Origin: Candidatus Gorgyraea atricola | Lineage (GTDB): Bacteria; Omnitrophota; Gorgyraeia; Gorgyraeales; Gorgyraeaceae | Assembly (NCBI GenBank): GCA_030765235.1 | Contig: JAVCCW010000028.1 | Span: forward strand, 24,744-88,743 | Direction of reading: 5' to 3' | DNA length: 64,000 bases | Shown here: positions 1,931-62,510 of the stretch, one piece after another | How the letters are laid out: the number at the start of each line of letters is the position of its first letter | Position numbering within the stretch: position 1 is the stretch's first letter | Made by a program: the position numbers and the translations under genes | The notes under the pieces: generated by a model | What the model saw: the letters and a program-made list of their open reading frames with translations, nothing else | Databases searched by the model: none | Told to the model about the DNA's origin: nothing

Positions 1931-2959
1931 ATGAAAATTCTAGTATTAAATAGCGGAAGTTCATCCATAAAATATAAGCTCTTTGACATATCAAAGAATA
2001 AAGAAACGCTTTTAGATAAAGGCATGGCGGAGAGAGTTTCTGATCATAAGGAGGCGTTGAGTTTAATATTGAAAAAAATAGATTCAAAGATAGAGGCCTG
2101 TGGTCACAGGGTCGTGCATGGCGGGGATAGATTTAAAACAGCAGCACTGATCGATGAAACTGTAATGGAGACAATAGAACATTTTAGTGAATTAGCACCT
2201 CTTCATAATCCGCCAGCGCTTCTGACAATAAATGAGTCAAAGAAACTTCTTCCGGATGTGCCGCACGTAGCAGTGTTTGATACAGCCTTTTTTCAGACAA
2301 TGCCGGAATGCGCGTATCTATATGCTATACCGTATGCGCTTTACGAGAAACACAAGATCCGAAAATATGGTTTTCATGGCACATCTCATAAGTATGTAGC
2401 AGGTCAGGCCGCGAGGATCTTGAAAAAGTCCATTGATAAGCTAAAGATCATCACCTGTCATCTGGGGAATGGATGCAGTATAGCTGCTGTTAAAAGCGGC
2501 AAGGCCATTGATACAAGTATGGGATTTACGCCTTTGGAAGGCCTTATCATGGGGACGCGCTCAGGAGATATTGATCCGACAATAGTTTCTTATATTATGA
2601 AGAAACAGGGCGTGGATATTGATAGGGCGATTGAGATTTTGAACAAGGAGAGCGGGCTTTTAGGTATCTCGGGTATAAGCAATGACATGCGCGAGATAGT
2701 AAGAAAAAAAGACGATAAGAGGTCAGCCCTTGCGCTAAAGATGTTTGCGTACAGGATTAAAAAATACATCGGCGCTTATATAGCTTCAATGGGTGGAGTG
2801 GATGCAGTGGTCTTTACAGGTGGTATTGGCGAGAATCACCCAAACCTGGTGAAAGAAATATGCAAAGACGTTGTATCGCCAAAGGTCAGGATATTATCGA
2901 TTCCAACAGATGAGGAATTGATGATCGCGAGAGATACGTATGAAAATATATGTAGATAA
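1931..2959 (+). CDS. ackA: acetate kinase family (acetate/propionate kinase)
   Basis: MKILVLNSGSSSIKYKLFD N-terminus, RKYGFHGTSHKYV, VFTGGIGEN and PTDEELMIARD motifs. 342 aa is about 50 aa shorter than typical AckA. Confidence 0.75.
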   Translation: MKILVLNSGSSSIKYKLFDISKNKETLLDKGMAERVSDHKEALSLILKKIDSKIEACGHRVVHGGDRFKTAALIDETVMETIEHFSELAPLHNPPALLTINESKKLLPDVPHVAVFDTAFFQTMPECAYLYAIPYALYEKHKIRKYGFHGTSHKYVAGQAARILKKSIDKLKIITCHLGNGCSIAAVKSGKAIDTSMGFTPLEGLIMGTRSGDIDPTIVSYIMKKQGVDIDRAIEILNKESGLLGISGISNDMREIVRKKDDKRSALALKMFAYRIKKYIGAYIASMGGVDAVVFTGGIGENHPNLVKEICKDVVSPKVRILSIPTDEELMIARDTYENICR

Positions 2960-3410
2960 GATATTGCCAGAGGGATTAGATCTTGCAGAGAAAATAGACC
3001 CGGGTAAGATCTCGTCGGATCTGGCAAAGCAGGGCACGGCTTTTTTTGATTCAATAGATGTGAAGGCAAGGGTCACAAAGGCAGGGATGGAGGTCTTTGT
3101 CGATATTTCCCTGGAATCACCTGTTGAATATACGTGCAGTCGCTGTCTTGCTAAGATCAAGGATACTTTTAAGAAAAGTTTTAACACCAATTATGAAGTC
3201 CATCCAGGAGATATTCTGGAGATAGATGACGACATAAGACAGGAAATAATGCTGGATAGTCCGATAAAGATCGTTTGCAAACCTGATTGTAAAGGGCTAT
3301 GCCCGAATTGCGGTCAGAATTTCAATGTAGATGAATGTGAGTGCAAAACAGAAAACAGAAAACAGAAGACAGAAGACGGAAGACAGAAAAATCTGTTATC
3401 TGACCTCTGA
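2940..3410 (+). CDS. yceD: YceD/DUF177 family protein (large-subunit rRNA maturation factor)
   Basis: C-terminal Cys cluster CKPDCKGLCPNCGQNFNVDECEC. Lies immediately upstream of rpmF-plsX, as in most bacteria. The 3' end carries a 6x ACAGAAR heptamer repeat. Confidence 0.75.
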   Translation: MKIYVDKILPEGLDLAEKIDPGKISSDLAKQGTAFFDSIDVKARVTKAGMEVFVDISLESPVEYTCSRCLAKIKDTFKKSFNTNYEVHPGDILEIDDDIRQEIMLDSPIKIVCKPDCKGLCPNCGQNFNVDECECKTENRKQKTEDGRQKNLLSDL

Positions 3411-3654: not shown

Positions 3655-3765
3655 AGGGACAAGGGACATGGGACCCCATACGAGAATCAAAGATTTCGTA
3701 CGGGGCAGGCAAGAGACAAGGGGGTTTAGATACTCCTTGTCCCTTGTTGCTTGTCACTTGTCCCC
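3655..3765. repeat. palindromic mini-repeat, intergenic copy (GGGACAA heptamers + core hairpin + inverted CCTTGTC arm)
   Basis: gggacaagggacatgggaccccatacgagaatcaaagatttcgtacggggcaggcaagagacaaggg...ccttgtcccttgttgcttgtcacttgtcccc. The core ccccatacga...tcgtacgggg is an inverted repeat. Near-identical cores occur at 6091-6157 and 30067-30138. Confidence 0.8.
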
Positions 3766-3782
3766 AAAGATGAGGTTTTGTC

Positions 3783-4769
3783 ATGATAAAGATAGCTTTA
3801 GACGCAATGGGATCGGATAATGCGCCGGGTGTGGATATTGAGGGTGCTGTGCTGGCGGCCCGTGAATATGACCACCAGATAATCCTGGTGGGTCAAAAAG
3901 ACCTCATTGAAAAGGAACTTGAAAATCACGGATCTATTCCAAAAAATATCTCCATAGAGCATGCCCCAGAGGTCATAGGCATGCACGAGCAGCCCGTTCT
4001 TAGCGTCAGAAGAAAAAAACATTCCTCTATTGTGACCCTGGCGAATCTTGCAAAAGAAAAAAAGGTAGACGCTATTGTCAGCGCGGGCAATACAGGCGCA
4101 ATGGTGTGCGCTGCCACGCTTAAATGCAGGCTTCTTCCTGGAATAGAAAGGGCAGGCATAGGTATTGTCATGCCTACCTTAAGAGATACGGCCTTGATGA
4201 TAGATGTAGGAGCTAATATAGGCGCTAAGCCCAAGCATCTCCTGCAGTATGCGATAATGGGAAGCGCCTATTCAGAATGTATATTAAATAAAAAATCCCC
4301 AAAGGTAGGGCTTCTGAATATCGGAGAGGAAGAATCAAAAGGCACGGGTTTTTTGAAAGAGGCATATGGACTTTTAGAGCTCTCGGGCCTGAATTTTATA
4401 GGCAATATCGAGGGCAGGGATCTTTTTATGGGAGATTGCGATGTTATCGTGTGCGATGGCCTGGTCGGGAATGTGGCGCTCAAGGTTTCAGAGAGCACTG
4501 CGCACGCCCTTACAGAGATGCTTAAGCAATACCTGAACAGCAGTTTTATTACAAGGCTTTCTGCTGTACTGGGCAGAAGCGCCTTTCGTTTATATAAGAA
4601 AAAGATGGATTCTGCCGAGTATGGCGGCGCGCCGCTTTTGGGTATAAATGGGATCTCTATAATATGCCATGGTTCTTCGAGCGCCAAGGCGATCAAGAAC
4701 GCTATTCGGGTAGCAGGCGAAGAATTCAATAAGAATGTAAATCAACATATAGTTGAGAAGATTTCATAG
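3783..4769 (+). CDS. plsX: phosphate acyltransferase PlsX
   Basis: 328 aa. MIKIALDAMGSDNAP N-terminus. Sits in the canonical rpmF-plsX-fabH position. Confidence 0.85.
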   Translation: MIKIALDAMGSDNAPGVDIEGAVLAAREYDHQIILVGQKDLIEKELENHGSIPKNISIEHAPEVIGMHEQPVLSVRRKKHSSIVTLANLAKEKKVDAIVSAGNTGAMVCAATLKCRLLPGIERAGIGIVMPTLRDTALMIDVGANIGAKPKHLLQYAIMGSAYSECILNKKSPKVGLLNIGEEESKGTGFLKEAYGLLELSGLNFIGNIEGRDLFMGDCDVIVCDGLVGNVALKVSESTAHALTEMLKQYLNSSFITRLSAVLGRSAFRLYKKKMDSAEYGGAPLLGINGISIICHGSSSAKAIKNAIRVAGEEFNKNVNQHIVEKIS

Positions 4770-4781: not shown

Positions 4782-5759
4782 ATGCAGGAAGCTGGGATAT
4801 TAGGGTTAGGCTGTTATCTACCTCCAAAGAAATTAACGAACAGTGATATCGAAAAAATGGTAGATACAACGAATGAGTGGATAATTACTCGAACAGGCAT
4901 TAAAGAAAGAAGGATCGCGCCTAAAGAAGTTGCTGCGAGTGATCTTGGCGTCGAGGCGTCCAAGGCTGCTATTGAAAATGCCGGATTAAAACCAGAGGAT
5001 ATTGATTTAATTATTACAGCTACAATAACCCCTGACATGGCATTTCCTGCTACGGCGTGCATTATACAGGATAAGATCGGCGCAAAAAATGCTGCTGCAT
5101 TTGACATAAACGCTGCATGTACTGGTTTTGTTTATGGTATAGTCCTGGCCAAACAGTTTATTAATACAGGTACATATAATAATGTTTTAGTAGTGGGTAC
5201 AGAAAAGCTGACGAGCATTGTTGACTGGACAGATAGATCGACCTGTGTATTATTTGGAGATGGCGCAGGCGCGTGTGTAGTGGGAAAGAGTAAAGAAAAG
5301 AGGATAGTTTCTAGCTTCCTGGGCGCAGACGGCTCAGGCGGTCATCTTTTAAGTATGCCTGCGGGCGGCTCAAGATTACCTGCTACAGAGGATACAGTTA
5401 AAAATAAGCTGCATTTTCTTAAGATGGAAGGAAATGAGGTATTCAAGATCGCAGTCAGGATAATGGTGCAGGCTGCTGACAAGGCGATCAAGAAAGTAGG
5501 ACTTAAGCCCAGTGATATAAATCTAGTTATCCCTCATCAGGCAAATATCAGGATACTTATGGCAGTTGCAAAGAGATTGGGCCTGCCTGAAGAAAAGATT
5601 TTTTTGAATATAGAGAAATACGGAAATATGTCAGCAGCCTCTACAGCAGTTGCGCTGGCAGAAGCAGGCCAGCAGGGTAAGTTAAAGAAGGGCGATAATG
5701 TGGTGCTGGTTGCGTTTGGCGGAGGACTTACTTACGGAGCAGCTGTTATAAAATGGTAA
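4782..5759 (+). CDS. fabH: 3-oxoacyl-ACP synthase III
   Basis: 325 aa. LGLGCYLPPKKLTNSDIEKMVDTTNEWIITRTGIKERR, AACTGF active-site Cys region, and a C-terminal GGGLTYGAA. Confidence 0.9.
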   Translation: MQEAGILGLGCYLPPKKLTNSDIEKMVDTTNEWIITRTGIKERRIAPKEVAASDLGVEASKAAIENAGLKPEDIDLIITATITPDMAFPATACIIQDKIGAKNAAAFDINAACTGFVYGIVLAKQFINTGTYNNVLVVGTEKLTSIVDWTDRSTCVLFGDGAGACVVGKSKEKRIVSSFLGADGSGGHLLSMPAGGSRLPATEDTVKNKLHFLKMEGNEVFKIAVRIMVQAADKAIKKVGLKPSDINLVIPHQANIRILMAVAKRLGLPEEKIFLNIEKYGNMSAASTAVALAEAGQQGKLKKGDNVVLVAFGGGLTYGAAVIKW

Positions 5760-5760: not shown

Positions 5761-5848
5761 AAATCGCGGAACCAGCGCAGAAGCTAAAGTAGACAAATCT
5801 GTCAGTGACTGATTTGTCTACTTTAGACGCGGAACTTACGCAGAAGCG
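5761..5848. repeat. intergenic element with aatcgcggaac terminus: 16-bp perfect stem-loop flanked by about 22-nt direct repeats
   Basis: atcgcggaaccagcgcagaagc | ctaaagtagacaaatc-tgtcagtgactg-gatttgtctactttag | acgcggaacttacgcagaagcg. The left terminus is shared with the elements at 21103 and 62511. Confidence 0.7.
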
Positions 5849-5854: not shown

Positions 5855-6826
5855 ATGAAAAATGTAAGTTATATTTTTCCAGGGCAGAGCGCGCAGCATG
5901 TTGGCATGGGCAAGGATCTGTATGAAAATTGCCCTGAGGCAAAAGACGCGTTTGATGAGGCAGAAAAGATTTTACCAGAGGCAGGCATTAAGAAACTCTG
6001 CTTTGAGGGACCTCTTGAAGAACTAACTCAGACAGCGAATAGTCAGGTGTGTATTCTTGTGGCTAGTGTGGCGGCGTTGAAGGCATTAGTGACAAGTGAC
6101 AAGGGACCCCATACGAAAATCGGAGATTTCGTACGGGGCAGGCAAGGGACAAGGGTTGTTGCTTGCGCAGGGCTTAGTTTGGGAGAACTCACGTCGCTTG
6201 TGGCTGCAGGAAGTATTGAATTTGCTGATGCTGTGCGCCTCGTTAGACGGCGTGGCGAATTAATGGAAGAGTCGTCCAGGAAGAATCCAGGCAGCATGGC
6301 CTCTATAATCGGCCTGGCGCTCGAGGATCTAAAAAAAGTTTGTGCTGAGACAGGCGCTGAGATAGCAAATCTAAATTGCCCTGGCCAGATAGTCATATCC
6401 GGGAGAAAAGAATCTGTTGAAAAGGCAATGCCCCTTGCGTTAGAAAAAGGCGCTAAAAAGGCAATAGCCTTAAAAGTGAGCGGAGGATTTCATTCTTCTT
6501 TAATGAAGGAGGCAGCAGATCTTTTTAAAATAGAACTGGACAAGGTAAAATTTTCAGCGCCTCAGATAGGTGTTGTCAGTAATGTAACCGCGGATTATGA
6601 AAAAACGCCTGACGAGATCAAAGATAATCTCGTTAAACAGCTATTTAGTCCAGTGCGCTGGGAAGAATCTATAAAGAGAATTGCCTCCTCAGATGGGGGC
6701 GTTGATATATTTTTTGAAATCGGCCCAGGGAAAGTGCTAAAAGGATTATTGCGTAGAATAGATGGTAATCTAAAGGTCCATAACATAGAAAAAGTACAAG
6801 ATATAGAAAATATAAAAAAGATGTAG
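5855..6826 (+). CDS. fabD: malonyl-CoA:ACP transacylase (carries an in-frame repeat insertion at 6091-6157)
   Basis: 323 aa. FPGQSAQHVGMG and the nucleophile elbow AGLSLGELTSL. The ORF is uninterrupted through the repeat. Confidence 0.85.
   Translation: MKNVSYIFPGQSAQHVGMGKDLYENCPEAKDAFDEAEKILPEAGIKKLCFEGPLEELTQTANSQVCILVASVAALKALVTSDKGPHTKIGDFVRGRQGTRVVACAGLSLGELTSLVAAGSIEFADAVRLVRRRGELMEESSRKNPGSMASIIGLALEDLKKVCAETGAEIANLNCPGQIVISGRKESVEKAMPLALEKGAKKAIALKVSGGFHSSLMKEAADLFKIELDKVKFSAPQIGVVSNVTADYEKTPDEIKDNLVKQLFSPVRWEESIKRIASSDGGVDIFFEIGPGKVLKGLLRRIDGNLKVHNIEKVQDIENIKKM
6091..6157. repeat. palindromic mini-repeat copy inside the fabD coding sequence, in-frame
   Basis: gacaagtgacaagggaccccatacgaaaatcggagatttcgtacggggcaggcaagggacaaggg, translated SDKGPHTKIGDFVRGRQGTR within FabD. 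Confidence 0.8.
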
Positions 6827-6945
6827 GGGTGAGGATGAGTTGTGGGTCGAGTTGTGAGTTGTGAGGGTGAGTTTAAAAACCCACAACCCACCCACACAAC
6901 CCGACACACAACTCATAACACACCCCCATAACTCACAACAAGAGT
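6827..6945. repeat. about 115-nt imperfect palindrome (GT-rich arm / AC-rich arm) between fabD and fabF
   Basis: gagttgtgggtcgagttgtgagttgtgagggtgagttt aaaa acccacaacccacccacacaacccgacacacaactc. Confidence 0.6.
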
Positions 6946-6952: not shown

Positions 6953-8191
6953 ATGAAACGTCGCGTAGTAATAACAGGTCTGGGCGTAATAGCGCCGAAT
7001 GGCGTGGGTAAGCGGGCGTACTGGGATGCCTTGAAGCAGGGGCGTTCTGGCATTCGCCGAATTACGCGTTTTGACCCGAGCCCTTTTCCCACACAGTTTG
7101 CTGGTGAGGCGGATTTTGACCCTGCCAAATTTATTTCCTTTAAACAGCTAAAGCGAATGGACAGGACTTCGCATCTTGCGGTTTCAGCAGCAAAGATGGC
7201 AGTAGAAGATGCAGGCCTTAATATTAAAGACGAAGATCCTGAGCGCATAGGTGTTGTCGTAGGCACTGCAATGGCTGGCCATGGCAGGATACTTGAACAG
7301 CATGATGTATTTATAAAAAAAGGGCCGATGAAAATAGATACATTTACTGCGATAGCGTCTTTTCCAGATGCGCCGTCGAGTCAGATTTCCATAGAGCTTG
7401 GCATTAATGGCCCGAGCTTTTCTATTGCCACTGCATGTTCTTCTGCCTCAGATGCGATCGGCTATGCCTTTAATGCGATCAGAAACAAAGATCTTGATAT
7501 AGTCATTATGGGAGGTGCTGATACTCCTATATTTCCACCTATACTTGGCGCATTTTGTGTCTTAAGGGCATTGTCAAAGAGAAACGATGCGCCTGAGAGG
7601 GCCTCAAGGCCGTTTGATAAGGAAAGGGATGGTTTTGTGCTTGGCGAAGGCGCAGGGATTTTAATACTGGAAGACCTGGAACATGCCTTAAAGCGCAATG
7701 CCCATGTCTATGGCGAGATCTCAGGTTTTGGCATGACATGCGATGCCTATCATATGACAAAACCAGAGCCTTCGGGAACTCAAGCAATAAGGGCATTGAA
7801 GCAGGCATTGCAGGACGCAAAGGTGAAACCAGCCGAGATACAATATATCAATGCGCACGGCACATCAACTCTACTGAATGACAAAAACGAAACGTTTATC
7901 ATAAAAGAGGTTTTTGGAAAATACGCGACTAAGCTTCCAATAAGTTCAATAAAATCCATGATAGGACATTTAATAGGCGCTGCTGGCAGCGTGGAATTAA
8001 TAGGCGCCTTGATGGCCATTGAAGAAGGTGTCATTCCGCCTACGATAAACTATGAAGCGCCTGATCCGGAATGTGATCTTGATTTTGTACCTAATAAGGC
8101 AAGAGAGGCAAAGGTAGACGTGCTCTTAAAGAATTCGTTTGGATTCGGAGGCAAAAACTCAGCGCTTGTGGTTAAGAGTTTTAAAGGATAA
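6953..8191 (+). CDS. fabF: 3-oxoacyl-ACP synthase II (KAS II family), copy 1
   Basis: 412 aa. MKRRVVITGLGVIAP, the ATACSS active-site Cys, and HxxH...GHLxGAAG C-terminal motifs. Confidence 0.85.
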   Translation: MKRRVVITGLGVIAPNGVGKRAYWDALKQGRSGIRRITRFDPSPFPTQFAGEADFDPAKFISFKQLKRMDRTSHLAVSAAKMAVEDAGLNIKDEDPERIGVVVGTAMAGHGRILEQHDVFIKKGPMKIDTFTAIASFPDAPSSQISIELGINGPSFSIATACSSASDAIGYAFNAIRNKDLDIVIMGGADTPIFPPILGAFCVLRALSKRNDAPERASRPFDKERDGFVLGEGAGILILEDLEHALKRNAHVYGEISGFGMTCDAYHMTKPEPSGTQAIRALKQALQDAKVKPAEIQYINAHGTSTLLNDKNETFIIKEVFGKYATKLPISSIKSMIGHLIGAAGSVELIGALMAIEEGVIPPTINYEAPDPECDLDFVPNKAREAKVDVLLKNSFGFGGKNSALVVKSFKG

Positions 8192-8206
8192 CGAAGCTTT
8201 TCTGTA

Positions 8207-8246
8207 GGCCAGGTTTAAACCTGGCCTACAGAAAAGCGGAGTTATC
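8207..8246. repeat. 40-nt perfect palindrome cttttctgtaggccaggttt|aaacctggcctacagaaaag (core shared with 24753-24778)
   Basis: Perfect 20-bp arms centred on GTTTAAAC. Lies immediately after the fabF stop. A second copy of the 26-nt core occurs after gspM. Confidence 0.75.
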
Positions 8247-8267
8247 CAATGGATAACGGAGGATATT

Positions 8268-10701: not shown

Positions 10702-13700
10702 TTGTTTACTTCCCGCAAAATTTTATTATCTTTTTCATTACTAGCAGTATTTGTTTTTCTCGCCTGTGCCAGCCCTTCTGTAGCATATAGCATTCCTACT
10801 GCTGAAATTTCTTCAATCGAGTTTGACAGTCCTACTAGACATCTTGTTGTTAATGGTTCTGCCTATGGTTCAGATTTCAAGAGCTATAAAATAGAATATG
10901 GCACAGGTGAGTCACCTACATATTGGACGAGTCTTAAGGTTTCAGAAGACGAGGTTCCAGACGGTGTTTTGGCAACAGGCACAGTATTCTGTATCAAAGA
11001 AGGATATTATACAGTCAAGCTCACTGTAGAAGATACTAATGGAGATATTGCAGAAGATAGAGATAGATTTTATTACTCACCTTATTTTATTTTAAAGTGG
11101 AGTAAAAACAGTTGGTCTGTTTCAATGTTTTCTTTAATGATAGGTCTATTGACTGTAACTGACGATGAGGGCGAGACAGCTACAGCTCCACTGAAAATTC
11201 TTGTCAATGCTGTAGATGAGGATGAAGATGAGGAGGAAGACGAAGATAAAGATGATGTTAAGGGTGAGAAAAAGCCAATAAAAGATCTGCAGTATGTCCC
11301 AGGTGAGTTTATAGTAAAGTTTAAGCCTGAGGCGATTCAAAAGGCTGCATCTATAGATTCAGCAAAGCCTCTCTTCAAAAAGAAAAAAGGTAAGATGCCT
11401 GATACTTATATTCTTAAGATAGATCCGTCAGAGGATGTATTGGCTGCATGTAGCAGGTATAAGGCAAGGGATGATGTTGTATATGCTGAGCCAAATTATA
11501 TTTACACCATAGATGGTGAGCCAGATCCTATGCTCTCACAGCAGTGGTCTCATAAAAAGACACAGGCAGATCTTGGCTGGGATATTGAAACAGGCAACAA
11601 GGATATTGTAATAGCTATTATAGATACAGGTGTAGAGTATACTCACCCAGACCTAGCAGAAAACATCTGGACAAATGAAGGCGAAATCCCTAATAACGGA
11701 GAAGATGATGATAGGAATGGGTATGTAGATGATTACTATGGCTATGATTTTGCTAACCTTAATAATGACCCTAAAGATGAGAATAACCATGGCACGCACT
11801 GTGCAGGTATTGCGGGTGCAGTAGGGAATAATGGCATAGGCGTGGCAGGCGTGTGTCATTCTTGCTCAATAATGTCTTTAAGGGTAAGCTTAAAGCCCCC
11901 TAATGGCAATGTAGTGCGCACTATTTCACAAAGTGATCTTTTAGCGGAAGCACTTAAATATGCTGCTGATAATGGCGCTCGTATTATCTCTATAAGTCTC
12001 AGAGGAGCCAACTCTCAGACAGTAAAAGACGCGATAACATATGCCTATCAAAAGGGATGTGTGATTGTAGCAGGCGCAGGCAACGGAAATTCCAGTAATA
12101 AATGTTATCCTGCGGCATTTGACAATGTAATCGCAGTAGCTGCTACTAATTTTAAAGATCAAAAAACAGAGATTTCAAACTATGGCAGCTGGATAGATGT
12201 TGCAGCCCCAGGCGAGAATATTTTATCAACTGTTCGTTCAGGTTATGGATCTTCTTCAGGTACCTCAATGGCTGCTCCATACGTAGCAGGTCTAGCAGGA
12301 CTTATACTTTCAAAAGATAGTTCACTTAGCAATAGTGAAGTTAAAAAGGTGATAGTAAGTAGCGTAGATGGCTGTGATTCTGATAAATATATAGGTACAG
12401 GCAGGGTCAATGTCTATGAGGCATTAAAGGATGAAGATGTCCCTTGCACAACAGAGATAACCTCGCCAGAGCATGATGATATAATAATTGAAGATGTGGA
12501 AGTTATAGGTACTGCTACAGGGGATTACACGCTTTATTATGGAAAGGGCACATATCCCTCCAGGTGGGAAGAATTTGACTTAGGCGAGAGTACCACAGAG
12601 GATGTTTTAGGTACATGGAATATATCAAATTTAACTGAAGGGACATATTCAATTAGACTAGCAGTTGAGGATGATGGCTCAGTAGTATGCGAGGATAAGG
12701 TGGTTGTAGAGGTAAGGGTAAGGGTGAATGATCGCGTGATTTACGTTGATAATTCTGCTAGCGGTGCAAATGATGGTACGTCCTGGCAGGATGCATATAC
12801 AACGATTAGCGCTGCCTTTGATGACTTATACTATGAATCAGGCGTTACTATAAAGGTAGCACAGGGTAGCAGTGCTTATGAAGAGGATTTCACCAATATC
12901 ACTAATGGGACAGATTCAGGAGTAAAGGATAATCATAATTCCTTAGTAGCAAAAGATGAGCATGCCCCAATAATAGCTTCTACTTTTACACTCAAGGATG
13001 TCAAATACTTTAAGATAAAAGGATTCAAATTTATCAACGCAGGCCTTGATATTATAGACGCTTCAAATATAAAGGTGGTAAACAATACAATAGACTCCAA
13101 TAGAGATTTTGGTATCTATTTACTGGATAGTGCTAATAATACTGTAAAGAATACCATTGTTATAAATGGTGAGGACGCAGGTATATGCGCAGAAGGGATC
13201 TCCTCAGTCTCGTCTTCGTATAATAATCTCTGGAATAATGGTGTGAATTACAAAGGCTGTTCAAAAGGTGAAGGAGATATCTCTAGCGACCCATTATTCG
13301 TAGATCTTGCATCAGGTGATTATCATCTCAGGTCTGATTCTCTATGTATAGATGCAGGGGATCCTAACGATCCGCTTGATAGTGCGGGTTCGCGAGTGGA
13401 TATAGGATGTTATACAGGGTATACACATCCAAGGGATCTCAAGAAACCTGTACTAGATGATGCGCAGCCTAAAGGCGCAACTGGCCTTGAGGTATATGAA
13501 GGTCAGGAGGTATTATTTAAGGTATATTCTTTTGATCCTAAAGGAAGGGCTATTACTTATTCGCTTCCCTATTCTTCAGATCCTGGCTTTATAGAAAATT
13601 CACAAGAAGAGCCAAAGAGTGGTATTTACACATGGCAGACAGATTATAATGATGCTGATGATGGCGGCGAGTACTATGTAACCATTAGGGCTACTGCAGA

Positions 13701-16700
13701 TGATGGCCGTTATGCAGAGGATATATTCAAGATAGTCGTAAATAATTTTGATCCAGAGAGGGAGCGCGTAATTTATGTTGATAATTCTGCTACTGGTGCA
13801 AATGATGGCACCTCATGGGAAAATGCATATACAACGATCACTGCAGCATTGAATGACTTGCACTATGAATCAGGTGTTACTATAAAAATTGCCAAAGGTA
13901 ATGGAGCTTATAAGGAGGATTTCAGCAGTGCCATAGATGATTCAGATTCTGGCACATATGAACAGCCAAATTATTTAGTAGCTAAACAAGGAGGCATGCC
14001 AACAATCGTTTCTTTAGTTGATGGCTTTAGCATTGATAATGCTAGATACATTACTATAGATGGATTGGGATTTATGGCTATTCCAGGTCATACAGGTTTG
14101 CCTGAAGTTGTAAGCATTAATGATTCTTCCAGGATTATATTTAAAAATAATGCAGTCGAGGCATTTGCAATAGATCTTAATGGTCTGGTTCTGGAGAATT
14201 GTTCAGATATAAGAGTAGAAGATAATAAGATGCTTGCGCTAGAAACCTCAATTTTGGCAAAAGATATTAAGAATAGCTTTATCAAGAGTAATCGTATAGA
14301 TTGCAGCAAGATTGGAATTTCTCTTGAGGGAGGTCTTGGTAATTCAGTCAATTATAACTTAGTTGTAAACAGTAGTAATGAAGGCATATCTATATCTTAT
14401 GGCGGCTTTTGTTCTATAGTAAATAACACCATAGACTCTTCAAGCTCTCCTTCTAGCCGTGATGGGATTATAGCCCGCGGCACGCTTAAGACCATTGTAA
14501 AAAATAACATAATAACCAATAATCAAGGAGCGGGAATAAGATTAGACGATGGCGCATCAATTAGATCTTCATATAACAATGTCTGGAATAATGGTGCGGA
14601 CTATAAGGGTTGTTCGCCAGGTACGGGAGCCATCTCTAGTGATCCATTGTTTGTTAATGTTTCGTCAAGGGATTATCATCTTCAGCCTAATTCTCCGTGT
14701 ATAGATGCAGGAGATCCTAATGACCCTCTTGATAGTGAACTTTCCAGAATAGATATAGGGTGTCACACAGGATATAGAGCTACAATAGTAAACCATGATC
14801 CTCAAGTCACAATAACTTCAATTTCTCCAAACCCAGCTTTGGTAGGCCAGCCTGTTAAGTTTAAGGCAGCAATAAGCGACCCTGATGGAGCTGGCGACTT
14901 GTTATACGACACATGGGACTATGGGAATGGTATAACTTCAATGTCGCAAGGAGGTTGTTCAGGAATCGGGGCAATGACCTATTTAAAGTCCGGGGATTAC
15001 ACAGTGACAGTCAAGGTGTATGATAAATCTGGTGGTACAGCAGAAGCCACAGATACTATAACTGTAAATACACCTCCTACGCGGCCGCCTGAGATTGAAT
15101 CCATACCTGATCAGGAGATGAGCGAGGGTGAAGAGCTTACAGTTAACATTAATACACTAGATATTCCTGACTACGAATTGTATGCTATGCATGTTGAAAA
15201 ACTGCCAGAATTTGCAGATGATATTATTTTAGATTATCATAATGGACCTAGGATAGTTACTGCTATTGTATTCAGGCCTGGCTTTGAGGACAGCGGCATA
15301 TACCCTGACATAACAGTAGTCTTGTCTATGGGAAAGTATCGCATAGAGGAGAAGTTTACATTAAAGGTACAAAACACTAACCGTAAGCCCAGAGTCACAA
15401 TAACCTCTATCTCTCCAAATCCAGCCTTGGTAGGCGAACTTGTTGAGTTTACAGCCCAGATAAGCGATCCAGACGGAGATAGTGACTTACTATGCGACGC
15501 ATGGGATTATGGAAATGACATAGCTTCAATGACGCAAGGGGGATGTAATGGGTCCGGAAGAATGACCTATTTAAAATCAGGAGACTACACAGTAACAGTG
15601 ACTGTGCGTGATAAATCTGGTGCTGCAGCAACAGATTCAGCAGTAGTTACTGTAAATAAAAGGCCTGACCGAGAACCCTCTAAGCCCATCCTCAAGAACG
15701 ATATAGCTAGTCTAACTGTAAATGAAGGAGAGAAGATGCAATTTAGACTCGCTTCAGCTGACCCGGACGGAGACAAAATAACCTACATAAAGGTAGAAGG
15801 ACCAGGCTCAATAGATGGCCTTACAGGTGTATTCACCTGGCAGACCGTCTATGCTGACAGCGGTACATACCCTCTAAGAGTGAAGGCCACATCCACCAGC
15901 CTGGAATCAGCGGAGGCAGAGTTTACTCTCACTGTCGAAAATACTAACCGTCCACCTGCTGCTGAAATCACTTTTGTTTCTGCAAGGAAGATTACTGTAG
16001 GAGAATCTGTTAACTTCGAGGCTAAGATCTATGATCCTGATGGTGACTCTGATATAAGCTATGTTATATGGAGATTCGGAGATGGTAAATCTTCAACAGG
16101 AGGCCTAAGTCAAAAAGACATTGCACATCGCTTTGATAAGCCAGGCAGTTATGAGGTAACTGTAGAAGTAGTTGATAAACAAGGTGTATCTGTAAAGGCC
16201 GGCGGTGTTACCATAACGGTAGAGGAACGGCTGCCCATAATTGGCGACGTGGATTCTGATGGTAAGGTACTGATGTATGATGCTTCTTTGGTTGCTCAGT
16301 ATGTTGAGGGTCTGATCAATTTTAACCCTACACAGATATACGCTGCTGATGTAACTCGCAATGGCCAGGTAACACACCTGGATGCTAATTTTATTGCAAT
16401 GTATGTAGTGGGAAAGATAGCTAAATTACCCGTAGAAAACCATGCCCCTATCTTTGCACAAATAGGCAATAAGACCGTCTTAAAAGGCTCTACCCTTAAC
16501 TTCACCATCGAAGCAACTGACCCTGATGGAAATAATCTCACTTACTCACTCAAGAATCCGCCAGATGGTGCAGCCTTAAAGGGTAATACCTTCTCATGGA
16601 CACCTGCTAGTACCCAGAAAGTCACCTTTGAAGTCACTGACGGTGAACTCTCTAGCTCGAAGACCATCATCATAACTGTACAAGATAAAAAACAGCCTCC

Positions 16701-16713
16701 TGCAATTGACTAA
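10702..16713 (+). CDS. giant secreted multidomain subtilisin-like (S8) serine protease with beta-helix, PKD/Ig-like and dockerin modules (2003 aa)
   Basis: TTG start with RBS. The signal peptide MFTSRKILLSFSLLAVFVFLACAS may be a lipobox. An acidic DEDEDEEEDEDKDD linker follows. An I9-like propeptide precedes the S8 catalytic triad (IAIIDTGV, NHGTHCAG, GTSMAAPYVAG). Two roughly 340-aa right-handed beta-helix modules are present (VIYVDNSA[ST]GANDGTSW...NNT repeats...DPLFV..DYHL..CIDAGDPNDPLDS). Three PKD-like domains carry DPDGD motifs. The dockerin repeats are GDVDSDGKV...DVTRNGQV. Ig-like domains lie at the C-terminus. Confidence 0.8.
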   Translation: MFTSRKILLSFSLLAVFVFLACASPSVAYSIPTAEISSIEFDSPTRHLVVNGSAYGSDFKSYKIEYGTGESPTYWTSLKVSEDEVPDGVLATGTVFCIKEGYYTVKLTVEDTNGDIAEDRDRFYYSPYFILKWSKNSWSVSMFSLMIGLLTVTDDEGETATAPLKILVNAVDEDEDEEEDEDKDDVKGEKKPIKDLQYVPGEFIVKFKPEAIQKAASIDSAKPLFKKKKGKMPDTYILKIDPSEDVLAACSRYKARDDVVYAEPNYIYTIDGEPDPMLSQQWSHKKTQADLGWDIETGNKDIVIAIIDTGVEYTHPDLAENIWTNEGEIPNNGEDDDRNGYVDDYYGYDFANLNNDPKDENNHGTHCAGIAGAVGNNGIGVAGVCHSCSIMSLRVSLKPPNGNVVRTISQSDLLAEALKYAADNGARIISISLRGANSQTVKDAITYAYQKGCVIVAGAGNGNSSNKCYPAAFDNVIAVAATNFKDQKTEISNYGSWIDVAAPGENILSTVRSGYGSSSGTSMAAPYVAGLAGLILSKDSSLSNSEVKKVIVSSVDGCDSDKYIGTGRVNVYEALKDEDVPCTTEITSPEHDDIIIEDVEVIGTATGDYTLYYGKGTYPSRWEEFDLGESTTEDVLGTWNISNLTEGTYSIRLAVEDDGSVVCEDKVVVEVRVRVNDRVIYVDNSASGANDGTSWQDAYTTISAAFDDLYYESGVTIKVAQGSSAYEEDFTNITNGTDSGVKDNHNSLVAKDEHAPIIASTFTLKDVKYFKIKGFKFINAGLDIIDASNIKVVNNTIDSNRDFGIYLLDSANNTVKNTIVINGEDAGICAEGISSVSSSYNNLWNNGVNYKGCSKGEGDISSDPLFVDLASGDYHLRSDSLCIDAGDPNDPLDSAGSRVDIGCYTGYTHPRDLKKPVLDDAQPKGATGLEVYEGQEVLFKVYSFDPKGRAITYSLPYSSDPGFIENSQEEPKSGIYTWQTDYNDADDGGEYYVTIRATADDGRYAEDIFKIVVNNFDPERERVIYVDNSATGANDGTSWENAYTTITAALNDLHYESGVTIKIAKGNGAYKEDFSSAIDDSDSGTYEQPNYLVAKQGGMPTIVSLVDGFSIDNARYITIDGLGFMAIPGHTGLPEVVSINDSSRIIFKNNAVEAFAIDLNGLVLENCSDIRVEDNKMLALETSILAKDIKNSFIKSNRIDCSKIGISLEGGLGNSVNYNLVVNSSNEGISISYGGFCSIVNNTIDSSSSPSSRDGIIARGTLKTIVKNNIITNNQGAGIRLDDGASIRSSYNNVWNNGADYKGCSPGTGAISSDPLFVNVSSRDYHLQPNSPCIDAGDPNDPLDSELSRIDIGCHTGYRATIVNHDPQVTITSISPNPALVGQPVKFKAAISDPDGAGDLLYDTWDYGNGITSMSQGGCSGIGAMTYLKSGDYTVTVKVYDKSGGTAEATDTITVNTPPTRPPEIESIPDQEMSEGEELTVNINTLDIPDYELYAMHVEKLPEFADDIILDYHNGPRIVTAIVFRPGFEDSGIYPDITVVLSMGKYRIEEKFTLKVQNTNRKPRVTITSISPNPALVGELVEFTAQISDPDGDSDLLCDAWDYGNDIASMTQGGCNGSGRMTYLKSGDYTVTVTVRDKSGAAATDSAVVTVNKRPDREPSKPILKNDIASLTVNEGEKMQFRLASADPDGDKITYIKVEGPGSIDGLTGVFTWQTVYADSGTYPLRVKATSTSLESAEAEFTLTVENTNRPPAAEITFVSARKITVGESVNFEAKIYDPDGDSDISYVIWRFGDGKSSTGGLSQKDIAHRFDKPGSYEVTVEVVDKQGVSVKAGGVTITVEERLPIIGDVDSDGKVLMYDASLVAQYVEGLINFNPTQIYAADVTRNGQVTHLDANFIAMYVVGKIAKLPVENHAPIFAQIGNKTVLKGSTLNFTIEATDPDGNNLTYSLKNPPDGAALKGNTFSWTPASTQKVTFEVTDGELSSSKTIIITVQDKKQPPAID
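12736..14775 (+). repeat. internal tandem duplication of an about 1-kb beta-helix module within the giant gene
   Basis: gtgatttacgttgataattctgctagcggtgcaaatgatggtacg at 12736 matches gtaatttatgttgataattctgctactggtgcaaatgatggcacc at 13768. Both modules end with ...CIDAGDPNDPLDS..R[IV]DIGC[YH]TGY. Confidence 0.75.
14803..15658 (+). repeat. two roughly 80%-identical PKD-domain repeats (14803-15070 and 15391-15658) within the giant gene
   Basis: [QR]VTITSISPNPALVG...ISDPDG..DLL[YC]D.WDYGN.I.SM[ST]QGGC.G.G.MTYLKSGDYTVTV.V.DKSG repeated. Confidence 0.75.
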
Positions 16714-18215: not shown

Positions 18216-19916
18216 ATGCTGATTAAAAAAACTATACTCTTAGGTGAAAGGCTTATCCAGAAAGGCCTGATTTCTCGTCGGGAACTAGATAAGGGTTTGA
18301 AGGAGCACGAGAAAACAGGCCTTTTTCTTGGGACTACTCTGGTAAGGCTTGGTTTTATCAGTGAAGAAGAACTGTATCCTATTCTTGCCGAGCAGTTGAA
18401 GATGGAGTATGTTAAGATAAAAGAACTTACTATTGATTCCGTGATTTTTGAAAAAGTCCCTGCCAGATATGCCTGCCATTACAGGCTCATGCCAGTAAAA
18501 TTTGATAAAGACATTTTGAGTGTTGCGGTCTCAGATCCTCTGGATATTAGGTCACTGGATGACCTGAGACTTCTTCTGGGTTGTGATGTGATCGGGTTAT
18601 TGGCAACTGAGTCAGACATAACCGAGGCCATCAGGAAATATTATGGCATTGGCGCAGAGACCATAGAAGAGATAGTGGATACGGGCGATATGGCCAAAGA
18701 TATAGAGCTGTCAGCAAAGACAACAGAGGATATAGAGGATCTTGCAGAGGACGCGTCGATTATAAAATTTGTAAATCAGGTCCTGGTGCAGGCAGTTAAA
18801 GACAGGGTCACGGATATTCATATTGAGCCGTATGAGGATGAGCTTAAGGTACGATACAGGGTGGATGGTGTTTTGTACGATATCCCAATCCCGCAGAATA
18901 TAAAATATTTTCAGGCTGCTATTGTTTCCAGGATAAAAATTATGGCGAGCCTGGATATTGCTGAGCGCAGGCTCCCGCAGGATGGGAGGATAAAGATCAA
19001 GGTAGGAGGGGAAGAACTGGATCTAAGGATATCCATACTTCCCACGCAGTTTGGAGAAAGCGTTGATATCAGGCTTTTAAGCGGCACAATGCTGTATAGC
19101 CTGAAGAATCTTGGACTTTCTTCTTCTGATCAAAAGATCATGGAAGTCCTTATCAAAAAGCCGCACGGGATCATATTTGTAACAGGACCTACAGGCAGCG
19201 GAAAGACTACTACGCTTTACGCGTGTTTATCCAAGATAAACAACAAAGACAAAAAGATCATTACCATAGAAGACCCCATAGAATATCAATTAAAGGGCGT
19301 GACGCAGATCCAGATCCACCCTCGCATTGGGCTTAGTTTCGCAGCAGGTCTGCGCTCAATGCTTCGTCATGACCCAGATATCATGATGGTGGGCGAGGTA
19401 AGGGATTTTGAAACAGCAGAGATAACTATTCGCGTTGCATTGACAGGGCATCTCGTGTTCAGTACTTTGCATACAAATGATGCTGCAGGAGGCATGGCGC
19501 GTTTGTTGGATATGGGTGTGGAGCCATATCTTGCTGCGAGTTCTGTTGAATGTTTTGCTGCGCAGCGCCTTGTAAGGCTGATCTGTCCGAAGTGTAAGAT
19601 TGAGAAAAGACCTGATAAAAAGGTCTTGAAGGAATTTGGAATAAAAGAGAAAAATATAAGTAAGGTAATTATTTTTGAGGGAAAAGGATGTGAGTCATGC
19701 AAGTTTACAGGCTACAGGGGCCGCACAGGCATATATGAGTTTTTACTTATGCATGAAGAGATCCGAGAACTAGTTCTTCACCGCTCATCAGCTGACCAGA
19801 TAAAGAAAAAGGCATTGGAGTTAGGCATGCACACGCTCCGCATGGATGGATGGGAAAAAGTGAAAAAGGGCCTGACAACGATAGACGAGGTGATCAGGGT
19901 TACAAAGGAAGACTAA
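18216..19916 (+). CDS. gspE: type II secretion/type IV pilus assembly ATPase (GspE/PilB family)
   Basis: 566 aa. N-terminal T2SSE_N domain with two MshEN-like motifs (LGERLIQKGLISRRELDKGL and LGTTLVRLGFISEEELYPILAEQL). Walker A VTGPTGSGKTTTLYA, and a C-terminal tetracysteine CPKC...CESC. Confidence 0.85.
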   Translation: MLIKKTILLGERLIQKGLISRRELDKGLKEHEKTGLFLGTTLVRLGFISEEELYPILAEQLKMEYVKIKELTIDSVIFEKVPARYACHYRLMPVKFDKDILSVAVSDPLDIRSLDDLRLLLGCDVIGLLATESDITEAIRKYYGIGAETIEEIVDTGDMAKDIELSAKTTEDIEDLAEDASIIKFVNQVLVQAVKDRVTDIHIEPYEDELKVRYRVDGVLYDIPIPQNIKYFQAAIVSRIKIMASLDIAERRLPQDGRIKIKVGGEELDLRISILPTQFGESVDIRLLSGTMLYSLKNLGLSSSDQKIMEVLIKKPHGIIFVTGPTGSGKTTTLYACLSKINNKDKKIITIEDPIEYQLKGVTQIQIHPRIGLSFAAGLRSMLRHDPDIMMVGEVRDFETAEITIRVALTGHLVFSTLHTNDAAGGMARLLDMGVEPYLAASSVECFAAQRLVRLICPKCKIEKRPDKKVLKEFGIKEKNISKVIIFEGKGCESCKFTGYRGRTGIYEFLLMHEEIRELVLHRSSADQIKKKALELGMHTLRMDGWEKVKKGLTTIDEVIRVTKED

Positions 19917-21101
19917 ATGCCTAAATTTATTTACAAAGCGAAAAAAGGGCCGAAAGAGATTATAGAGGGAAAGATCGAGGCTGAATCAGAGGCCCAGGCT
20001 GTAAAGCAGCTCATGCAGCAGGGCTATTATCCTATATGGGTTAAAGAGACCTCGACCTTAGCCTCACAAAAAAGAAGACCTGTAAAAACAAAGGACCTTG
20101 CGATTTTTACAAGGCAGCTCTCAGAGCTCTTGGATTCAGGCCTGGCCCTGTACGAGGCATTAAATATAATTGAAAATCAAATAGAGCTGCCGGGGTTAAA
20201 AGAGATCATAAGAGGTATTAGGGAAAAGGTAAGGGATGGCAATACCTTTTCTGAATCTTTGAAAGACTACCCAGGTGTTTTTTCAGAATTATATGTAAAT
20301 CTGGTTCGCTCAGGTGAGGCAGGGAGCATGCTTAGGGACGTGCTCAATAATATCGCGGATTTTCTGGAAAAAGAAGAGGATGTAAAGTCCAGGGTATTGG
20401 CTGCACTGGCATATCCAATGCTGATGCTGATCGTAGGTGCTGGTACAATATTTATTCTAACAGGATTTGTTATTCCAAAATTGGCCAATATGTTTATTGA
20501 GATGGGCGAGGTCTTACCTCTTCCCACAAGGATGCTTATTGGATTTAGTGATTTTATAAGGAGTTACTGGATATTATTAGCCATTTTTATAGGTGGCGCG
20601 ATATTTTTTGTTGCAAGGAGTAAATCCAAGGGGGCTATAGACAGGTTCAAATTAAAATTGCCTATTATTGGAGCGCTAGTAAGGGATAGTGAGCTTGCTA
20701 GATTCTCACGCACGCTTTCAATGCTTCTTAAAAATGGCGTGGCGATTCTTTCTGCATTAAAGATTACCTCTGATGTAATCGAAAATGAGGTTGTAAAAGC
20801 CGAGGCGCTTAGGATCTATAATGATGTTAGAGAAGGTTCATCGCTTGCAGCTGCGATAAAAAAGAATACCAGCTTTCCCCAGTTTATCGTAAATATGGCA
20901 ACGATAGGAGAAGAGGGTGGGATGCTGGATAAGACCTTACTTAAGGCTGCAAAGAGTTACGAGCTCGAGAGCGACAGAAAGATCAAGATACTCTCATCTC
21001 TTTTAGAGCCAGCTATAATATTGATCATGGGTGTGGTAGTAGGTTTTATCGTAATATCAATGCTTTTGCCAGTATTTCAGATATCGTTGACTGCACATTG
21101 A
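19917..21101 (+). CDS. gspF: type II secretion inner-membrane platform protein (GspF/PilC family)
   Basis: 394 aa. Duplicated T2SSF domains and three TM segments. The start codon abuts the gspE stop. Confidence 0.85.
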   Translation: MPKFIYKAKKGPKEIIEGKIEAESEAQAVKQLMQQGYYPIWVKETSTLASQKRRPVKTKDLAIFTRQLSELLDSGLALYEALNIIENQIELPGLKEIIRGIREKVRDGNTFSESLKDYPGVFSELYVNLVRSGEAGSMLRDVLNNIADFLEKEEDVKSRVLAALAYPMLMLIVGAGTIFILTGFVIPKLANMFIEMGEVLPLPTRMLIGFSDFIRSYWILLAIFIGGAIFFVARSKSKGAIDRFKLKLPIIGALVRDSELARFSRTLSMLLKNGVAILSALKITSDVIENEVVKAEALRIYNDVREGSSLAAAIKKNTSFPQFIVNMATIGEEGGMLDKTLLKAAKSYELESDRKIKILSSLLEPAIILIMGVVVGFIVISMLLPVFQISLTAH

Positions 21102-21102
21102 C

Positions 21103-21134
21103 AAATCGCGGAACTTCCGCGTAGTTCAGCGATT
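21103..21134. repeat. minimal copy of the aatcgcggaac...gttcagcgatt palindromic element, directly after the gspF stop
   Basis: aaatcgcggaacttccgcgtagttcagcgatt. The termini are shared with the element at 62511-62628, and the left terminus with 5761-5848. Confidence 0.65.
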
Positions 21135-21150
21135 ACTATAGGAGGTAATT

Positions 21151-21549
21151 ATGAGTAGTCAAAAAGGTTTTACATTGATAGAACTGATGCTTGTCGTAAT
21201 AATCATAGGGGTGCTTGCGTCATTAGTAGTGCCCAGGCTTGTGGGCCGTTCAGAAGAGGCAAGGATTGCCGCTGCAAAGGCAGATATAAATGCCAATATT
21301 TCAGTGGCGCTTGATCTATATGAGCTGGACAATGGAAAATACCCGTCTGACCTGAATGCCTTAAAGGCAAAATCAGGCTCGGACGCAAACTGGAAAGGCC
21401 CATATCTTAAAAGAAGCGTAAAAGATCCATGGGGAAATTCTTATGTATACAGAAGCCCAGGGGATCATGACACTGATTACGATCTTTATTCTTATGGCCC
21501 TGACGCTGCAGAGGGCGGAGGCGATGATATTACGAACTGGGAAGAATAA
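21151..21549 (+). CDS. gspG: type II secretion major pseudopilin GspG
   Basis: 132 aa. Prepilin leader MSSQKG|FTLIELMLVVIIIGVLASLVVPRL. The GspG-specific motif DPWGNSYVY is present. Confidence 0.85.
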   Translation: MSSQKGFTLIELMLVVIIIGVLASLVVPRLVGRSEEARIAAAKADINANISVALDLYELDNGKYPSDLNALKAKSGSDANWKGPYLKRSVKDPWGNSYVYRSPGDHDTDYDLYSYGPDAAEGGGDDITNWEE

Positions 21550-24722: not shown

Positions 24723-24778
24723 CTTTACACTTAACCAAGGCTTAAGTGTAAAGTAGGCCAGGTTTAAACCTGGCCTAC
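24722..24778. repeat. two adjacent perfect palindromes after gspM: actttacacttaa-ccaaggc-ttaagtgtaaagt and gtaggccaggtttaaacctggcctac
   Basis: The second is the 26-nt core of the 8207-8246 palindrome. Confidence 0.75.
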
Positions 24779-24798
24779 AGAGAAGTTAGGAGTTGACC

Positions 24799-24872: not shown

Positions 24873-24873
24873 T

Positions 24874-26409: not shown

Positions 26410-26424
26410 AAGGGGAGGTTTCCG

Positions 26425-31672: not shown

Positions 31673-31687
31673 TATCTACGTTTGTGT

Positions 31688-35530: not shown

Positions 35531-35531
35531 A

Positions 35532-62497: not shown

Positions 62498-62510
62498 TAC
62501 ATATGTGGAT

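Follow-up and report, generated by a model that had tools for sequence, protein, structure and literature searches.

A 36-nucleotide hairpin nested in heptanucleotide arrays within fabD, etfB and other genes of Omnitrophota

The gene fabD of Candidatus Gorgyraea atricola, a bacterium of the phylum Omnitrophota, contains a small repeat. The gene lies on a stretch of 64,000 nucleotides of contig JAVCCW010000028.1, which is called the window below. The repeat takes up about 67 nt, at 6091-6155, inside an intact open reading frame (ORF). It is made of two nested layers: an outer tandem heptanucleotide array, (GGGACAA)n, and an inner hairpin of 36 nt, called the core. A preliminary description, based on the letters of the DNA, had placed a 67-nt element in the intact fabD frame, with near-identical copies in an intergenic spacer and inside etfB. 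The intact frame was found as described, as were the further copies, at 3655-3767 and 30067-30131. Its start in fabD was correct and its end, given as 6157, lies 2 nt too far; its translation, ..VTSDKGPHTKIGDFVRGRQGTRVVACAGLSLGE, was reproduced from the fabD ORF. The 67-mer itself, however, is not the unit. The unit is the 36-nt hairpin within the array, and the array alone is present in the closest relatives. The features of the repeat in the window, all on the + strand, are as follows.

5855 to 6826, + strand: fabD ORF, 323 aa, intact; host gene of the repeat.
6089 to 6106, + strand: left heptamer array in fabD, GTGACAA GTGACAA GGGA.
6107 to 6142, + strand: 36-nt hairpin core in fabD, CCCCATACGAAAATCGGAGATTTCGTACGGGGCAGG, encoding PHTKIGDFVRGR (residues 85-96).
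6143 to 6155, + strand: right heptamer array in fabD, CAAGGGACAAGGG.
3656 to 3673, + strand: left heptamer array of the intergenic copy, in the rpmF-plsX spacer.
3674 to 3709, + strand: 36-nt hairpin core of the intergenic copy.
3710 to 3767, + strand: right heptamer array of the intergenic copy, followed by a 13-nt spacer and an inverted array of the (TTGTCCC) type.
29611 to 30462, + strand: etfB ORF, 283 aa, intact; second host gene.
30067 to 30077, + strand: left heptamer array in etfB, GGGACAA GGGA.
30078 to 30113, + strand: 36-nt hairpin core in etfB, read as PIRESKISYGA in a phase that differs from that in fabD.
30114 to 30131, + strand: right heptamer array in etfB, CAAGGGACAAGGGACAAG.
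42093 to 42124, + strand: "empty" array, (GGGACAA)x4.6 without a core, in frame in a GT9 heptosyltransferase gene (41646-42725).

Arrays of GGGACAA thus occur at four loci of the window, the rpmF-plsX spacer, fabD, etfB and the GT9 gene, the last without a core. The 36-nt centre of the repeat has three matches in the window with at most 3 mismatches (3671-3706, 6104-6139 and 30075-30110), against none expected from 100 shuffles.

The host protein is FabD, as found by a phmmer search against the PDB (E. coli FabD, 1mla, E = 1.9e-59), and it has the fold and the catalytic set of Acyl_transf_1. A look-up of the exact FabD sequence returned no record, whereas by homology search FabD and EtfB of the window match proteins of a metagenome-assembled genome of Candidatus Gorgyraea atricola at 100% identity. 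Residues Q11, S108, R133, H213 and Q262 are invariant across 38 orthologues. They are the counterparts of Gln11, Ser92, Arg117, His201 and Gln250 in the E. coli enzyme. The nucleophile elbow reads GLSLGE in the window protein and GHSLGE in E. coli, and directly before it the alignment has a gap of 13 residues in the E. coli sequence. The preliminary description had given the equivalent E. coli segment as about 14 aa shorter. In EtfB, five solved structures of the bifurcating type have no counterpart for about 22 residues at the repeat site.

An AlphaFold2 model of the window FabD (mean pLDDT 88.7, pTM 0.89) agrees with solved FabD structures at TM-scores of 0.85-0.93. Residues 81-100, which hold the insert, have a pLDDT of 53-61 and are predicted to form the loop that joins helix 60-80 to strand 99-106. 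In the model, the insert is a low-confidence loop in an otherwise canonical FabD fold. The insert had also been placed next to the active-site elbow. This holds for the primary sequence, where it is near Ser108, yet in the model it sits at the opposite end of the strand leading to the elbow.

The inner layer is exactly 36 nt long. It begins with CCCCATACGA, followed by a 6-nt stretch, ends with TCGTACGGGGCAGG, and lies seamlessly inside one heptamer. It amounts to 12 codons, has no stop codon in any sense frame and specifies a hydrophilic peptide. The phase of reading differs between the two genes of the window (..GGA CCC CAT.. in fabD, ..GAC CCC ATA.. in etfB). The outer layer is likewise indifferent to frame. 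Since 7 and 3 share no factor, each sense frame of (GGGACAA)n gives one and the same hydrophilic repeat of 7 aa, GTRDKGQ.

Openness in three sense and two antisense frames had been claimed for the core of the element at the outset. The sense part of this claim holds for the 36-nt core. The fabD variant is open on the antisense strand too, and hence free of stops in all six frames; the other variant has a single antisense stop. In the 67-mer as a whole, two sense frames contain TGA, which comes from two heptamers mutated to GTGACAA. When the 36-mer is shuffled with its composition kept, 13% of the sequences lack stops in the three sense frames and 3% in all six; stop-freeness alone is therefore only mildly unusual.

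The two layers can be separated by looking at relatives. The closest FabD relative among those compared at the DNA level (L014, FabD 87% identical) has the same gene order as the window, pta-ackA-yceD-rpmF-plsX-fabH-fabD-fabF. At the codons of the window repeat, its fabD contains an uninterrupted array, ttaGGGACAAGGGACAAGGGACAAGGGACAAGGGtg. The junction reads ..GTGACAAGTGACAAGGGA, 36 nt, CAAGGGACAAGGG.. in the window and ..GGGACAAGGGACAAGGGACAAGGGACAAGGG.. in the relative. In the window gene these four heptamers recur, the third interrupted by exactly 36 nt. Another relative, which has the shortest FabD loop (L018), possesses neither array nor core. The same relationship is seen in etfB: two relatives (L019 and L020, EtfB 91% identical) have four heptamers, the window has those four plus exactly 36 nt, and a third relative (L021, 89% identical) has a single GGGACAAG at the site.

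The insertion point in etfB has the same phase within the heptamer as that in fabD, and one junction phase is shared by all copies in a GGGACAA context. In both genes, filled and empty sites differ by exactly 36 nt, leaving no target duplication. The unit that comes and goes is the 36-mer, and syntenic relatives display the series of empty site, array, and array with core at the same codon positions. Among the matches listed, the core is absent from all 119 other close EtfB orthologues, and the copy in etfB is therefore a gain. As the preliminary description had supposed, comparison with orthologues finds the repeat missing from FabD and EtfB of other organisms. In a more distant orthologue, seen in two independent sequencing runs (L016 and L017; FabD of P0003/L016 is 78% identical), the core is present at the same fabD codon position, between GCGACAA heptamers. 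That description had also named the observation that would speak against an insertion, a similar loop of the same length in repeat-free orthologues. The shortest Omnitrophota FabD loops are in fact 17 aa shorter.

These comparisons also bear on the objection that the insert is an assembly or binning artefact created by repeat-induced chimeric joining within a metagenome-assembled genome (MAG). In favour of this, only one assembly on record has exactly the fabD allele found in the window. Homologous fabD genes with a core nevertheless come from the two independent runs just mentioned, and cores in arrays and in frame are found on at least 8 further contigs from another metagenome. Array-only alleles occur on 6 and 18 contigs respectively, and the ORFs resume orthologous protein sequence on both sides of every insert. 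An artefact is thus an extremely improbable explanation.

Beyond the window, 185,579 species-representative genomes were scanned for the pattern. Three Omnitrophota MAGs contain the core, as does one that is labelled Planctomycetia, and the flanks around it differ at each of the four loci. In one (L001), the core lies between CGAACGA heptamers, in frame in an RluD-type pseudouridine synthase; in another (L003), the flanks are not repeats; in a third (L004), the core is in the antisense orientation in YfhO. In another Omnitrophota MAG (L002, 7650-7760), the core occupies the loop of a larger palindrome, GTGTCATTGCGAGCGAAC...GCCTCGCAATGACAC, which resembles the "cattgcgag.." repeats common in uncultured bacteria.

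A scan of JGI metagenomes found the core on nine contigs, of which seven, from sample Ga0075122, carry eight copies, all flanked by GGGACAA. Hosts checked with Pfam outside the window include RluD, HisH, LeuRS (two copies), a SPOR protein, PyrD (two copies), Tgt, a 4Fe-4S protein and LigA. The PyrD copies stand in direct tandem (L010, 626-704) with one heptamer between them; their period is 43 nt, and they are therefore read in different phases of one protein. In total, 13 copies are in Pfam-confirmed genes and 4-5 are intergenic or uncertain. The proportion inside genes nearly equals the coding density, and genes are therefore little depleted of copies. Only intact copies, and no degraded ones, were recovered with an nhmmer profile of the core from the window and the fetched loci, syntenic relatives included. 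The viral contigs of IMG/VR gave 0 core matches in one strict and one degenerate scan, and there is therefore no sign of a phage vector. A search of 5.8 billion proteins with the concatenated three-frame translations returned 17 short, insignificant matches and was uninformative.

None of the 13 in-gene copies shifts the frame or introduces a stop, although the lengths of the arrays around them differ. The chance expectation for frame keeping is 1 in 3, which gives p of about 5e-5 for nine genes. The orientation is also biased: 12 of the 13 copies are in the sense direction (p = 0.003), and all three phases are used. This bias can be explained by the peptides, since the sense translations are very hydrophilic (GRAVY -1.2 to -2.2) and the antisense ones are hydrophobic (+0.3 to +1.2) and rich in Cys and Pro. 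Nearly all genes of the window are on the + strand, so that orientation to replication and orientation to transcription are inseparable here; across positions 1-64000 this strand has a GC skew of +0.10 to +0.22 and an AT skew of +0.04 to +0.15. The purine-rich GGGACAA heptamer agrees with this strong purine loading.

A hairpin inside a coding sequence might also be left out of the protein, either by programmed translational bypassing or by excision from the mRNA. Known bypass elements are those of T4 gene 60 and the mitochondrial byps of Magnusiomyces, and they too are short hairpin-containing inserts in coding sequence. The core is moreover flanked by direct repeats, which could supply matching take-off and landing codons. 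Bypass elements are, however, free in frame and in stops and have a stop or rare codon where take-off occurs, and the Omnitrophota element is constrained in both frame and stops. The constancy of frame despite differing array lengths, the 7-aa steps in which orthologous loops grow, and the preference for the strand that codes a hydrophilic peptide are constraints that would not apply to an untranslated segment. No stop codon follows any candidate take-off codon. Bypassing or excision is accordingly very improbable.

Folded on its sense strand, the 36-mer forms a hairpin that has 11 base pairs and a single internal A.C mismatch (-14 kcal/mol, z = -3.6). On the antisense strand this mismatch becomes G.U, and the result is a 13-bp hairpin of -21 kcal/mol. 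The intergenic copy (3656-3767) folds as one long hairpin that includes the inverted heptamer arm, at -53 kcal/mol (z = -6.1). Such structures raise the question of whether a host function keeps the element in place. It could act as an RNA hairpin, serving as a signal for mRNA processing, stability or ribosome pausing at domain boundaries, or as a flexible peptide linker.

The strength of the intergenic hairpin fits this idea, as do the strand-dependent mismatch of the stem and the preservation of the core sequence across divergent MAGs. Several copies are also located at linkers: in LigA where the HhH domain joins the BRCT domain, in LeuRS where the catalytic domain joins the one that binds the anticodon, and in EtfB in an inter-domain region. 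The same locations are also expected if selection filters random insertions, however, and the closest relatives lack the core at the corresponding sites. The three reading phases mean that the copies share no common peptide. Within genes the hairpin is weak on the mRNA strand (-14.7 kcal/mol, z about -1 to -2), and no Rfam family matches anywhere in the window at gathering thresholds. A host function is improbable on this evidence.

The sites in FabD and EtfB are variable far beyond the window. Among 120 FabD orthologues, nearly all of them metagenomic or Omnitrophota MAG proteins, a hypervariable loop lies between the helix ending ..AL.AL and the strand VACAGLSLGE. Measured on a fixed segment containing the loop, lengths start at 12 aa; among the longer forms 19 aa is the most frequent (32 sequences), and further classes are 26 and 33 aa. 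The corresponding EtfB segment is 7 aa at its shortest and has classes of 12, 19, 26 and 33 aa. Residue identity within the loop reaches 15.5% at lag 7 in FabD (about 6% at other lags) and 14.1% in EtfB (about 5.5%). A translated heptamer array would give just this period, since three heptamers make seven codons.

Other lineages have other heptamers at these places. In one, the DNA confirms the arrays, with (TCACGAA)x4.5 at the site in FabD (L022) and (TCACGAA)x4 at that in EtfB (L023), in different assemblies. In some orthologues the two arms of a heptamer palindrome are both in frame, as in VKGEGWRVK..HPTPFTFHP. A second mini-hairpin, "core2" (TCCCTCGACTTCGCTCGGGAC), has the same AGGC tail as the first core and lies beside it in HisH (L005, about 279-303, - strand). 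It occurs twice in L001 (about 4035-4055 and about 5518-5538), its peptide PSTSLGTG is present at the FabD hot spot of orthologue P0024, and a diverged inverted pair lies at about 35400-35446 in the window, at the centre of an intergenic hairpin (35357-35531).

The same loci thus have different heptamers between lineages, and different loci have the same heptamer within one lineage. This pattern is not explained by slippage or homologous conversion alone. The FabD and EtfB sites are phylum-wide hot spots with lineage-specific heptamer arrays. The preliminary description had pictured a repeat that colonised essential genes without breaking them. That the repeat is dispersed and in frame was borne out; a one-off colonisation was not, as its sites are recurrent across the phylum.

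Several of these observations can be brought together in one reading, which is probable rather than secure. Its observed parts are the anatomy, the presence/absence polymorphism, the kept frame, the hot spots and the distribution; neutrality, translation and the mechanism of copying are inferred. Two nested layers of tiny repeat DNA would be tolerated and translated in a permissive loop, and would spread by template switching between arrays. The best-supported view of the element is that it is selfish or apparently neutral DNA, neither layer being needed by FabD. An array within a gene would change its length only by frame-preserving steps, typically of 3 units, which correspond to 21 nt or 7 aa. 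The 36-nt hairpin, which would be non-autonomous, would be copied seamlessly into one heptamer without target duplication. The layers would persist because the peptide is hydrophilic, rich in Gly and Pro and disordered, and because the loop is far from the catalytic serine. Survival in ORFs is likewise attributed to the 12 codons without sense stops, the frame-independent 7-aa repeat of the array and the hydrophilic sense peptides.

As for the copying mechanism, template switching (copy-choice) assisted by microhomology is the best guess; it would take place at replication, from one heptamer array of a genome to another, with arrays and hairpins stalling the fork. A heptamer-like seed in a tolerant loop would first grow into an array, which would later receive a core; rarer, homology-independent jumps would carry the core into new contexts and species. 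This mechanism is favoured because the junctions are seamless and of fixed phase, arrays serve as the targets, a single-heptamer seed is seen in L021, and no transposase was found in the scanned ORFs. The last point refers to a Pfam scan of 30 ORFs in the first 47 kb of the window, in which no transposase or reverse transcriptase was detected.

A number of points weigh against this reading. In other species the core also lies between unrelated flanks, and at least some moves are therefore independent of homology. Its sequence hardly varies between MAGs whose FabD proteins are more than 20% different. This speaks for recent horizontal spread, active homogenisation or selection, and a purely passive model would predict none of the three; the scan pattern required exact stems, however, so that conservation is overestimated and diverged relatives are missed. 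The direction of change in fabD is ambiguous, because the 78%-identical orthologue has the core at the same codon position, and the two closest relatives may have lost it precisely. Translation of the insert is deduced from conservation of frame. The search for a mobilising enzyme, finally, covered 64 kb of the genome and about 30 ORFs.

Some of the same points favour a different mechanism, which is unlikely and yet a serious rival. The hairpin may be mobilised in trans by an enzyme acting on single-stranded DNA hairpins, such as a HUH/Y1 transposase of the IS200/IS605 or RAYT type or another nuclease or integrase, which would insert it seamlessly at a preferred position of the heptamer. Four hallmarks of Y1 transposition can be recognised: a short 3' tail (CAGG) on the hairpin, insertion that is seamless and duplicates no target, the fixed junction phase of all copies, and the tandem pair in L010 exactly one heptamer apart. 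The unrelated flanks between species mean that homology is not required. The finding of intact copies only would suggest recent activity, and the striking conservation of the core lends weight to an HUH-type enzyme. On the other hand, the scanned ORFs contain no transposase domain, and no target motif is common to the flanks from different species. Each copy is a single unit rather than an inverted doublet as in REPINs, and neither strand of the 36-mer contains the GTAG or CGTC head by which REP families are recognised (PMC3733652).

Repeats of comparable kinds are known from several groups of bacteria. The preliminary description had compared the element with the Rickettsia palindromic elements (RPEs), which are about 105-146 bp long (PMC3184786; Ogata et al. 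2000 as summarised there). In-frame repeats within genes are known for RPE, BOX, RUP and BRE (PMC3184786). Like RPEs, the element is a dispersed palindromic repeat that is intergenic as well as in frame in housekeeping genes, without inactivating them, and its peptide would lie in a tolerated surface region. It differs in that its core is 36 nt (about 67 nt with the array), or 3-4 times smaller, in that RPEs are not embedded in heptamer arrays, and in that RPEs belong to Alphaproteobacteria and not to Omnitrophota. The element is not an RPE; size, architecture and phylum, rather than a sequence comparison, set it apart. The analogy is therefore a functional one, of persistence in frame within genes, and does not extend to identity.

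The architecture is nearer to that found in Nostoc. Elhai et al. in 2008 reportedly described small dispersed repeats (SDRs) nested in the tandem heptanucleotide arrays (STRRs) of Nostoc and other Nostocaceae. Nostoc SDRs are 21-27 nt long and restricted to cyanobacteria. To our knowledge, mini-elements nested in heptamer arrays were known only from Nostocaceae. Both kinds are well under 100 nt, lie in tandem heptamer arrays and are nested with other mini-elements, as is core2 beside core 1 in L005. Both are present or absent at orthologous sites, and neither has a known transposase. The embedding itself is matched as well: the Omnitrophota core is flanked by GGGACAA, CGAACGA or GCGACAA, and relatives have the empty array.

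The element, however, is 36 nt long and occurs in a phylum of the PVC group, so that length and taxon set it apart, not a sequence comparison. About 70% of the Omnitrophota copies found are inside protein genes, at loop hot spots shared across the phylum. SDRs are unknown outside Nostocaceae (PMC5861425), and the core is present in Omnitrophota MAGs and the one MAG labelled Planctomycetia. By analogy, the element is closer in architecture to Nostoc SDRs in heptamer arrays and in behaviour to RPEs, and it would belong to neither family.

REP and REPIN elements are mobilised by RAYT transposases (PMC3116915, PMC3733652). They resemble the core in that they are non-autonomous, occur in many copies and form imperfect palindromes of about 35 nt, and the core falls within their range of 20-40 nt. 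Differences other than the missing head are that the core is single or in direct tandem (L010) instead of an inverted doublet, that it is mostly intragenic (13 of about 19 distinct copies), and that the Pfam scan of 30 window ORFs showed no RAYT. The window also contains a GTAG-headed, REP-like perfect palindrome (GTAGGCCAGGTTTAAACCTGGCCTAC), just after fabF (8186-8247) and after pilO (24753-24785). This is a family distinct from the 36-nt core and fits the GTAG-tagged REP class.

MITEs (miniature inverted-repeat transposable elements) and MITE-like repeats fused to ORFs are known in bacteria as Correia, BOX, RUP, BRE and ERIC (PMC3184786, PMC10969869). They share with the element a non-autonomous nature, stem-loops and occasional in-frame fusions to ORFs. 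MITEs, however, are 100-400 bp long, with terminal inverted repeats and target-site duplications, and the Omnitrophota element is 3-10 times smaller. Its hairpin arms could count as inverted repeats, yet there is no duplication. Identification as an intein, as a CRISPR solo repeat or as the attC site of an integron was also considered and ruled out, as size and motifs do not fit.

Further repeats surround the genes discussed here. Long intergenic hairpins of -41 to -80 kcal/mol are found at 6827-6925, 31684-31748, 35357-35531 and 58528-58654. They are inverted arrays of tandem 7- or 10-nt units, and the unit differs in each: GTGAGTT, GTGTCAG, AAATCCC or ACGGAAGGTT. The one after fabD is missing in the syntenic relative L014, in which fabH and fabD overlap; the two genes are 95 nt apart in the window. 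Their spacer (5766-5848) has flanks of the CGCGGAA/CGCAGAA type around a perfect hairpin of 41 nt and appears to represent a further nested repeat family. Flanks of this type enclose a different mini-hairpin, CGGCCTTCGGCCG, in the rpmF-plsX spacer of L014 (3960-4030). Similar CGCGGAAC motifs are present at 21102-21150 and 62498-62631 of the window.

An array is also found within yceD (2940-3410), where (AAAACAG)x6.6 at 3345-3390 encodes the C-terminus of the protein, ..TENRKQKTEDGRQK... YceD is 156 aa long in the window and 140 aa in L014, which is free of the array. Elsewhere, positions 10702-16713 encode a secreted-type protein of 2003 aa with S8 subtilase, beta-helix, PKD, dockerin and Ig-like domains; its gene adjoins a cluster of the type II secretion or type IV pilus-like kind (18216-28386).

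Such repeats are not mentioned in the Omnitrophota genome literature consulted (PMC8542988, in which the genus Gorgyraea is described from Ace Lake, Antarctica, and a 2026 preprint). A full-text literature search for Omnitrophota together with heptamers found no description either. No prior description of the element in Omnitrophota was found in the literature searched.

The finding indicates that very small repeat DNA can occupy essential genes of Omnitrophota without breaking them, at hot spots that recur over more than 100 orthologues. It joins two rare phenomena and extends them to a new phylum: in-gene repeats like RPEs, and mobile-looking elements of less than 40 nt in heptamer arrays. 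Conserved proteins become 5-25 aa longer through the inserts, and their domain matches are split, as in PyrD, where the Pfam model is matched in two stretches; this may depress the scores of annotation by hidden Markov models in Omnitrophota genomes.

How elements too small to encode or bind a conventional transposase can spread is a long-open question, for which the series of empty site, array and core offers a direct handle. A more far-reaching possibility, which is doubtful at present, is an unrecognised and perhaps enzyme-driven process that writes frame-neutral, lineage-specific heptamer arrays into hot-spot loops and then inserts 36-nt and similar hairpins into them seamlessly. It is suggested by the fact that the heptamer varies with the lineage at a given locus and is shared between loci of one lineage. 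If it were true, this process would represent a mode of small-scale DNA mobility, and of the evolution of protein loops, that is new, and Omnitrophota would provide a tractable comparative system for the problem of STRRs and SDRs.

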